64,000 nt of DNA from a virus. Taxonomy: Duplodnaviria; Caudoviricetes. Below, piece after piece: positions 50,226 to 50,648 of this stretch (within the stretch, counting starts at the first letter, position 1; every line of letters begins with the position of its first letter). The stretch lies in the IMG/VR virus record IMGVR_UViG_3300021181_000004, one strand, 5' to 3'. The notes beneath the pieces were generated by a model, which had not been told where the DNA came from, did not search any database, and saw nothing but the letters and a program-made list of their open reading frames with translations. The translations under genes were made by a program, and so were the position numbers.

Positions 50226-50300
50226 TGGCAGGGGCGGAGGGATTTGAACCCCCAAGTTCCGTTTTGGAGACGGACAGTTTGCCGTTGAGCTTACACCCCT
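50226..50300 (-). tRNA. tRNA-Trp(CCA)
   Basis: Canonical; TCCGT-CTCCAAA-ACGGA; G73. Confidence 0.95.
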
Positions 50301-50400
50301 GTACTATCTCTGTTGGTTGTCTTTGGGAAACCCCTGTACTATCTCTGTTGGTTGTCTTTGGGAAACCCCTGTACTATCTCTGTTGGTTGTCTTTGGGAAA
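50296..50400. repeat. 35-bp perfect tandem repeat x3 abutting the tRNA-Trp 5' end
   Basis: cccctgtactatctctgttggttgtctttgggaaa at 50296, 50331 and 50366. Confidence 0.97.
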
Positions 50401-50463
50401 CTCACTGACCGTTGGATGGAATCTTCATCAGGCACCCGAATCACTACCGAACAGAGAAAGCGA

Positions 50464-50541
50464 TTACCGCTTTCGCCACTGGCGATTAGCTGGGTGTTTA
50501 TGCCCGCCAATCTGATTCGTATTGTGCTGTCTGAAAATCAT
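50464..50541 (-). CDS. Putative leader peptide 2 (25 aa, MIFRQHNTNQIGGHKHPANRQWRKR)
   Basis: Lies between the promoter and the tRNA cluster; 16 of 24 non-start codons are R/Q/H/N/K/W. Confidence 0.7.
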   Translation of the reverse strand: MIFRQHNTNQIGGHKHPANRQWRKR

Positions 50542-50618
50542 GTCAGTTCACTGTGAGCCTTTGCAGGTGCCGATTCGCACTTTACAAGTGTACACGACCT
50601 ATCCTGTGGCTCATTTGC

Positions 50619-50648
50619 ATAATACCTAGGTATTTGGAAAATCGGGTA
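50619..50648 (-). promoter_or_regulatory. Phage promoter motif TACCCGATT-N15-TATTAT driving the tRNA cluster
   Basis: Same motif and spacing; immediately downstream of a terminator. Confidence 0.75.

Follow-up and report, generated by a model that had tools for sequence, protein, structure and literature searches.

Phage transfer RNA (tRNA) genes are usually regarded as a constitutively expressed supplement to the host tRNA pool, and control by leader peptides is known for amino-acid operons. Could a phage place its tRNA genes under such control? The question is raised by positions 50,226 to 50,648 of a 64,000-nucleotide stretch of viral DNA (hereafter the window), which comes from the minus strand of the 75,462-bp IMG/VR virus record IMGVR_UViG_3300021181_000004. 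There a short open reading frame (ORF), most of whose codons are read by tRNAs encoded downstream, stands in front of a tRNA array that begins with tRNA-Trp. We refer to this region as leader 2, and to a similar unit elsewhere in the window as leader 1. The initial annotation, made from the letters alone, read leader 2 as a codon-matched leader peptide with competing helices, the last of them a hairpin with a poor U-tract; in our analysis the conserved ORF and the competing helices stood, and a terminator at that hairpin did not. On balance we lean toward the view that leader 2 is an RNA switch set by translation, in which a conserved, codon-matched ORF lies in the leader of a tRNA operon and this leader can adopt two folds.

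Codon content and conservation of the leader ORF

50464..50541, minus strand: leader ORF of 25 codons plus TAA (ATG at 50541 to TAA at 50464), peptide MIFRQHNTNQIGGHKHPANRQWRKR, recognized by its codon match and by its orthologues in relatives.

The codon match was scored with a set of 14 sense codons read by ten downstream anticodon classes. These codons make up 21.5% of the codons in the long ORFs of the phage. In the leader ORF they account for 16 of the 24 codons, as the initial annotation had counted, and the probability under genome codon usage, the calculation of which had been proposed there, is 2.5e-6 (binomial, 21.5% background). The match is therefore beyond chance. None of 20,584 in-gene segments of 24 codons reached 16 matches, the maximum being 14, and the fraction of stop-free 24-codon segments in any frame that reached this value was 4.8e-5. 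Among 436 small ORFs beginning with ATG, the leader ORF ranked second. Nine of the ten anticodon classes are sampled; nine or more were obtained with p = 1e-4 in simulation and in 63 of 62,399 real segments. The ORF thus has the enrichment that is expected of an attenuator in the codons whose decoding would be sensed.

Relatives were found mainly through the protein encoded upstream of the leader. In the large protein collections, homologs of this protein turned up on contigs L012-L014 (89% identity), which all have one and the same leader sequence, and on contig L019 (68% identity). Contig L018, from a Joint Genome Institute (JGI) metagenome, was found by a conserved 22-mer. L012, L018 and L019 all carry the upstream terminator, the promoter box, the leader and tRNA-Trp, and each contains an orthologous ORF (lengths below include the start codon).

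Window: peptide MIFRQHNTNQIGGHKHPANRQWRKR, 16 of 24 codons matched.
L012: ORF of 26 codons, peptide MTCRRHNTNQVGAGDKAHTNRQWRKR, 15 of 25 codons matched.
L018: ORF of 29 codons, peptide MTCRQAKSNQGGIGMTQRHTNNANPWRKR, 15 of 28 codons matched.
L019: ORF of 28 codons, peptide MIMRLSNTNRINRDGHKTVRANRQWRKR, 16 of 27 codons matched.

The other two frames contain 2-7 matched codons in the four lineages, and the frame of the ORF alone is open in all four. The start context AACTGACATGA and a UAA stop in the loop of a hairpin described below (hairpin T) are also the same in all four lineages. The ORF differs in length from that of the window by +3 (L012), +12 (L018) and +9 nucleotides (nt; L019), and every length change falls in hairpin A or in a small stem-loop, B, before hairpin T. 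The distances from the conserved start block to the TGGCG block are accordingly 58, 61, 70 and 67 nt, all equal modulo 3, for which the probability by chance is about 0.04 with three differences. The initial annotation had called for a check of the conservation of the ORF in relatives; the ORF is kept in the four lineages, with in-frame insertions and deletions and a frame-specific codon enrichment.

Within this constant frame, single matched codons move. The last codon is CGG in the window and in L018, whereas L012 has CGG at codon position 5 and L019 at position 26, and the AAA codon, gone from hairpin A, reappears at codon 7 in L018. At the C-terminus of the peptide, all four lineages have W-R-K-R and three have NRQWRKR, among them L019, where three Arg codons have changed synonymously. 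Between lineages the middle of the peptide varies. Swaps between matched codons (CAG to CGG, AAT to AAA, CGG to CGT) were considered as further evidence and set aside as not significant alone, since 4-6 of the nine single-base neighbours are also matched (hand count).

Wider searches added no further leader. Cultured phages gave matches to the tRNA genes only, and IMG/VR relatives reached through flanking proteins (L002-L011) contained neither tRNAs nor the leader. With the repeat and the conserved blocks as exact patterns, no match was found in IMG/VR or in GTDB genomes; one candidate, L017, was a chance match inside a coding gene. Distant homologs of the upstream protein (L016 and L020-L031, 42-58% identity) have lost synteny, and leader 2 is not present beside them. 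A second anchor protein led to contig L032, which ends before the leader. In Rfam, no family, T-box included, matched 50301-50660 at the gathering score or at E <= 1.

Two alternative folds of the leader RNA

The elements of the two folds, all on the minus strand, are as follows.

50513..50547, minus strand: 5' strands of the stalk (P0 ACUGAC, then AUG, P1, P2 and P3), spanning the start codon and codons 1-10; from independent folds of four sequences.
50484..50512, minus strand: hairpin A, GAUUGGCGGG / CCCAGCUAAUC, with a variable tip; compensatory pairs in the RNAalifold table.
50456..50474, minus strand: hairpin T, GAAAGCG/CGCUUUC, with the UAA of the ORF in its loop; -9.3 kcal/mol.
50450..50457, minus strand: segment X, UCUCUGUU, the 5' arm of the alternative long-range helix X-Y; from pairing energies and shuffles.
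50404..50443, minus strand: 3' strands of the stalk (P3 UGAUUCG, P2, P1, the conserved loop UCCAUCCAA, P0 GUCAGU); from folds and duplex energies.
50295..50401, minus strand: conserved C/A-rich spacer, CCCAAAGACAAC..AACAGAGA, a perfect 35-bp tandem repeat in 3.1 copies; from Tandem Repeats Finder (TRF).

The dominant conserved structure of this domain of about 147 nt is a long stalk, which the initial annotation had missed. The stalk comprises about 27-30 bp in four helices: P0 (ACUGAC/GUCAGU, flanking the AUG), P1, P2 and P3 (CGAAUCA/UGAUUCG). Its 5' strand, formed by the AUG region and codons 1-10, pairs with RNA downstream of the stop codon, at a distance of 60-100 nt, and the stalk closes a junction that bears hairpins A and T (fold S). 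Folded singly, the four sequences gave the same architecture, with z-scores of -3.3, -3.6, -3.9 and -5.1. The pairing partners were mapped on the gap-free 5' strand from these independent single-sequence folds, and cross-duplex energies and shuffles were added. By this procedure 25 stalk positions pair in at least three of the four sequences, nine of them with compensatory changes. Cognate 5' and 3' strands pair at -12 to -17 kcal/mol, as against -6 to -9 kcal/mol for most non-cognate combinations. From a MAFFT alignment, RNAalifold gave P0, P3, A and T and neither P1 nor P2, because the 3' strands align out of register; the MAFFT alignment that includes L019 is also out of register with the structure.

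The second fold is built on segment X, which directly follows hairpin T and is complementary to segment Y (AACAGAGA) in the spacer before tRNA-Trp. It had been proposed that the arm after hairpin T can pair with the 35-bp repeat; that pairing proved to be real, and corresponds to helix X-Y. In L019 both arms are altered, to GCUGCUC/GAGCAGC, so that the helix covaries. Compared with shuffles, X-Y gave p = 0.001-0.003 in the window, L018 and L019 (0.003 in L019) and 0.04 in L012. Since X lies inside the region enclosed by the stalk and Y outside it, helix X-Y and the stalk cross each other. With the first 40 nt blocked, to mimic a ribosome, all four sequences gave a long 3' hairpin that X-Y closes (fold H). 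The energies of the enforced folds S and H are within 2 kcal/mol of each other in three of the four lineages.

An attenuator is also expected to have helices that exclude each other, one of which overlaps the ORF. Folds S and H share the 3' strands, and both covary; the claim of competing helices that overlap the ORF was thus borne out. Copies of Y lie at 50384-50377, 50349-50342 and 50314-50307, a triplication due to recent amplification of the spacer in the window phage, and the relatives have a single diverged copy of the spacer. The 35-bp repeat overlaps the first bases of tRNA-Trp. In the part of the spacer that is exposed in fold S, about 33 nt contain 8-10 C, 6-9 G and 3-5 pyrimidine-C (YC) dimers. 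On inspection by eye, neither a "region 4" in tRNA-Trp that would pair with the spacer nor a boxA-like element was consistent across the lineages.

Boundaries of the unit, sister leaders and transcripts

The ends of the unit are marked by the following features.

50658..50697, minus strand: intrinsic terminator of the upstream gene (P0001), a GC-rich hairpin (50697-50667) followed by TTTATTTTT; -21.3 kcal/mol.
50619..50655, minus strand: promoter-like box CTAAT-N3-ACCCG-N18-TATTAT; motif shared with leader 1.
50554..50613, minus strand: 5'-terminal stem-loop TGAGCC/GGCTCA of 60 nt; from the minimum free energy fold.
50226..50300, minus strand: tRNA-Trp (CCA), the first gene of the array; from ARAGORN and Infernal.

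All the elements that the initial annotation had placed here (terminator, promoter, stem-loop, ORF, hairpins and repeat) were found in place. The upstream gene ends at 50703 (minus strand), directly before its terminator, and L012, L018 and L019 have a counterpart hairpin and T-run at the matching place. This terminator marks the leader as a separate transcription unit. The promoter-like box is likewise conserved in the three relatives, and transcription is expected to start at about 50612. The ORF then begins about 70 nt downstream of the predicted start, and 164 nt separate it from tRNA-Trp; it stands between the promoter and the first gene of the array, as a short attenuator ORF should. The 60-nt stem-loop at the 5' end, in contrast to its earlier description as an element of the leader, is not a conserved one: L012 has an 18-nt GNRA hairpin instead, and in L018 the stem-loop is absent. 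This lineage-specific structure is probably a stabiliser of the 5' end.

Two other tRNA clusters of this phage group have comparable leaders. The ORF of leader 1 (56371-56300, minus strand; unit 56424-56232) reads MTRIYLSSSSSSSSGADGAGVCI and contains eight consecutive Ser codons, spanning all six Ser codons, plus ATA and TTA. Behind it lie four tRNA-Ser genes and those for Leu-UAA and Ile-UAU. Its RNA shows a 1:2 / 2:3 / 3:4 helix arrangement with a strong 13-bp terminator (z = -4.2), and the Ser run and the terminator are kept with a different sequence in L012 (4850-4640, minus strand). The promoter motif CTAAT-N3-ACC(C)G-N17/18-TATTAT occurs at leader 1 (56424-56393) and at leader 2 and nowhere else in the window; it may be read by a phage-specific or alternative sigma factor, its -35 part being unlike TTGACA. 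The second example is L020, a 249-kb contig with a 58%-identical homolog of the upstream protein. There a 48-codon ORF at 5680-5920, in which 26 of 47 residues are Ala, Val, Gly, Asp or Glu, is followed by a canonical terminator and then by Ala, Gly, Val, Gly, Gly, Glu, Asp and Glu tRNAs. The mRNA of this ORF may be leaderless, with the ATG about 7 nt after a TATCAT box. These two cases suggest that codon-matched leaders are a habit of the phage group, which raises the prior probability that the ORF of leader 2 is functional.

Contigs that match both leaders occur in RNA libraries. In the metatranscriptome run X4, two contigs are 100% identical to the window at 50598-50372 and 50401-50337. The RNA therefore appears to start near the predicted transcription start and to pass hairpin T into the repeats, extending at least 80 nt beyond the hairpin. 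Among the other pieces listed in the 7 kb examined in X4, none was specific to the window phage. For leader 1, an RNA-library contig of run X2 (56352-56124) covers the tail of the ORF, the terminator and the first tRNA. Gaps in the coverage of X2 and X4 carry no meaning as absence.

Proposed mechanism

From these features we infer that the ORF is translated and that the position of the ribosome selects the fold. Leader 2 would then be the 5' leader, with its own promoter, of a Trp-His-Asn-Arg-Arg...Lys-Gln-Arg tRNA operon. A ribosome that is slow on codons 4-10, with AGA, CAG, CAC, AAU, AAU and CAG among the early codons, would mask the 5' strand of the stalk, and, if the masking lasts while the 3' strand and the spacer are being transcribed, the RNA would adopt fold H, in which the downstream segment folds back on the spacer and the AUG is free. 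A fast ribosome, on arriving at the UAA within the hairpin T loop, would clear the 5' strand and intrude on T and X, and fold S would form. In fold S the AUG would be buried, shutting off further initiation, and the spacer before tRNA-Trp would be single-stranded. The choice of fold would in this way report how well the sampled codon classes are decoded.

Both the sign and the nature of the output are conjectural. Rho or RNase E might act on the spacer that fold S leaves open, or weak termination might occur at hairpin T. A Rho- or processing-based switch, for which the initial annotation had allowed, may still apply. In its specific form the proposal is a terminator-free toggle on the tRNA operon of about 4 kb: completion of the ORF, a checklist of about ten codon classes, would lead to the stalk, silence the AUG and open the spacer to Rho or RNase E. 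We put this form forward tentatively, as possible rather than probable.

Alternative explanations

Several points weigh against a translated, sensing leader. No canonical Shine-Dalgarno (SD) sequence precedes the AUG at 50541, while the protein genes of the phage have AAGGAG at 7-9 nt; leader 1 likewise lacks a canonical SD sequence. The initial annotation had cautioned about the SD sequence and about the poor U-tract after hairpin T, and both cautions hold. In the amino acids served, the tRNA sets of the relatives L012 and L019 do not differ from that of the window, which leaves no variation in tRNA content for the codons of the ORF to follow. The comparison covers four lineages, three of which are close to each other in the 3' half. 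The non-coding blocks past the stop are as conserved as the ORF, being 100% identical among the window, L012 and L018, and the changes that look synonymous are also neutral for the RNA helices. Selection at the RNA level alone could therefore explain part of the conservation. Downstream of the ORF, no intrinsic terminator was found before tRNA-Trp in any of the four lineages by terminator scan and hairpin energies, and the spacer, only mildly C-rich, is a poor Rho site, so that a role for Rho is not well supported. In addition, the X4 evidence consists of contigs, which do not reveal the true ends or the strand of the RNA and leave carry-over of DNA conceivable.

The best surviving alternative takes up several of these points. 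Leader 2 may be a structured non-coding leader, either a stable small RNA or a processing scaffold that is co-transcribed with the tRNAs, in which the ORF is incidental; the tRNA cluster of phage T4 carries stable RNAs (species 1 and 2). The burial of the AUG in the stalk, the missing SD sequence, the invariant downstream blocks and the strong folding z-scores of all four domains would be natural for such an RNA. The CG-rich helices B and T would supply Arg codons by themselves, and the leader is the only phage-specific RNA piece among those listed from X4, as expected of a stable structured RNA. However, helices do not readily account for an enrichment that is confined, in four lineages, to one frame, the only open one. 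Nor would a non-coding RNA be expected to show three length differences that are all multiples of 3, or to regain elsewhere the rare matched codons that it has lost, and the two other tRNA clusters of the lineage have unmistakable codon-matched leader ORFs. We consider a purely non-coding leader unlikely.

A second alternative is classical attenuation, in which hairpin T and UCUCUGUU form a weak terminator, and a ribosome stalled on AAU CGC CAG UGG CGA AAG CGG melts T and lets the polymerase read into the tRNAs. It is attractive that the last six codons, all matched, form the 5' arm of hairpin T, that the stem of T is invariant in three lineages with a loop that varies and always holds the in-frame UAA, and that the sister leaders use logic of this kind. 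The tail of T has five U in eight positions in the window, L012 and L018. In L019, however, the tail is UAGCUGCU, with three U in eight, and the tail covaries with Y as a pairing partner, which is not the behaviour of a U-tract that is simply kept. The stability of hairpin T across the lineages is only -8 to -10 kcal/mol, compared with -17.4 kcal/mol for the terminator of leader 1 and -21.3 kcal/mol for that of the upstream gene, and the terminator scan gave no call. Neither fold S nor fold H is followed by a U-tract. An intrinsic terminator between the ORF and the regulated genes, another feature expected of an attenuator, is thus missing from leader 2. Moreover, since the stop codon is in the loop of T, a ribosome close behind the polymerase would always cover the hairpin. 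The RNA-library contig, as described above, runs through it. A terminator made of hairpin T plus TCTGTT is for these reasons (weak energy, the U-poor tail of L019 and the passage of the contig) unconvincing, and classical attenuation appears improbable here.

It is very improbable that the ORF encodes a small basic peptide with a function of its own (for example RNA or tRNA binding, or nascent-chain arrest), gated by the switch and resembling the tRNA set by coincidence: although the C-terminal W-R-K-R is kept in four lineages, NRQWRKR in three with synonymous changes, and trans-acting leader peptides such as peTrpL of Sinorhizobium are on record (PMC7298713), the middle of the peptide is not conserved, a chance agreement with nine to ten anticodon classes of the adjacent operon would be remarkable, and the sister leaders match their own, different tRNA sets.

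The tRNA array and neighbouring genes

The tRNAs of the array called by ARAGORN or Infernal are Trp, His, Asn, Arg-CCG, Arg-ACG, Asn, Lys-CUU, Gln and Arg-CCU. After Trp, the order is His, Asn, Arg-CCG, Arg-ACG, a reversed ORF, several odd tRNA-like elements, Asn and Lys-CUU; the remainder consists of three small protein genes, Gln, Arg-CCU, a D-armless homolog of Arg-UCU and a Lys-UUU-like element. The last two (46776-46610) had been listed by the initial annotation as UCU-like and Lys-UUU elements. They are non-canonical in the window and homologous to canonical tRNAs in the relatives. Relative to its canonical counterparts in L012 and L019, the Arg-UCU homolog (46776-46699) is missing the D arm and carries an extra insert in its variable region, and the Lys-UUU-like element (46690-46610) was called by neither ARAGORN nor Infernal. 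Another tRNA-like element, at 48615-48691, has the anticodon loop UUCUAGA (anticodon CUA, amber suppressor type) and scores 22.9 bits, under the Rfam gathering threshold.

Two ORFs interrupt the array. That at 47275-47847 (minus strand, the same as the tRNAs) matches Pfam HNH families, and that at 49008-49709 (plus strand, reversed) is HNH-like by eye and has no Pfam match. The relatives hold ORFs at both places, namely a reversed ORF of 176-178 amino acids without a Pfam match and an HNH gene.

The window also encodes RIIA/RIIB-like proteins and a large terminase, and the standard genetic code suits its genes. One window protein (82 amino acids) is also found on a 340-kb contig, so that the 75-kb record, which has a 97-bp terminal repeat, probably represents only part of a jumbo phage genome. 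The best DNA match for the window was a soil metagenome. A permuted (two-piece) transfer-messenger RNA (tmRNA) gene lies at 62338-62664 (plus strand; Rfam alpha_tmRNA, 66.7 bits).

The gene upstream of leader 2 (50703-51068) has one in-frame TGA, and a tRNA with the anticodon UCA (51501-51575) lies upstream of it. Its homologs in other phages (L020, L021, L022, L027, L016 and L028-L031) again adjoin a suppressor-type tRNA with the anticodon UCA or CUA, and some of them translate only with TGA read as tryptophan or TAG as glutamine. A contig of the DNA run X1 is identical to the window up to 50667 and unrelated beyond, which suggests that a strain carrying another upstream gene occurs alongside.

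Comparison with known systems

The principle proposed here is that of leader-peptide attenuation, which is known; the differences lie in a tRNA operon as the target and in the lack of a terminator. We found no published description of leader-peptide control of tRNA genes in a literature coverage that was incomplete. If the proposed reading is correct, phages would measure decoding capacity and adjust the supply of tRNAs accordingly, the phage tuning the transcription or maturation of its tRNA set to the real-time decoding capacity of the cell. Leader 2 would then belong to a second class of tRNA-gene attenuators, different in mechanism from those of the same genome that use a terminator. The terminator-free unit points to a second mechanism of output, and its two covarying folds define precise mutants. 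As a compact natural sensor, leader 2 would cover about ten codon classes simultaneously.

Leader 1 and the leader of L020, from the same phage lineage, share with leader 2 the order of promoter, small ORF spelled in the codons of the downstream tRNAs, and tRNA array, and leader 1 also has the same promoter motif. They differ in having a strong canonical terminator and an obvious antiterminator, where leader 2 has a bistable fold of stalk versus 3' hairpin.

The trpL, hisL, thrL and ilvL attenuators resemble leader 2 in a short post-promoter ORF rich in the sensed codons and in overlapping, mutually exclusive helices upstream of the regulated genes; thrL and ilvL are, like leader 2, multivalent. 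In contrast to these attenuators of amino-acid operons, leader 2 targets tRNAs and not enzymes, samples nine to ten codon classes where they sample one to three, has no intrinsic terminator, and has one fold that sequesters its own start codon.

T-box riboswitches likewise couple tRNA status to the expression of translation-related genes through a leader RNA. They sense uncharged tRNA by base pairing, however, and have no ORF, and Rfam, as noted above, found no T-box in leader 2.

For an output other than a hairpin-plus-U-tract terminator, tnaC and the Salmonella leaders mgtL/mgtA, mgtP/mgtCBR and corL/corA offer a likeness. In these systems the position of the ribosome on the leader ORF picks a long-range structure, and the output is the loading of Rho on an exposed Rho utilization (rut) site. 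The difference is that the spacer of leader 2 is short and mildly C-rich, and that Rho is here only a candidate for the factor that reads the fold.

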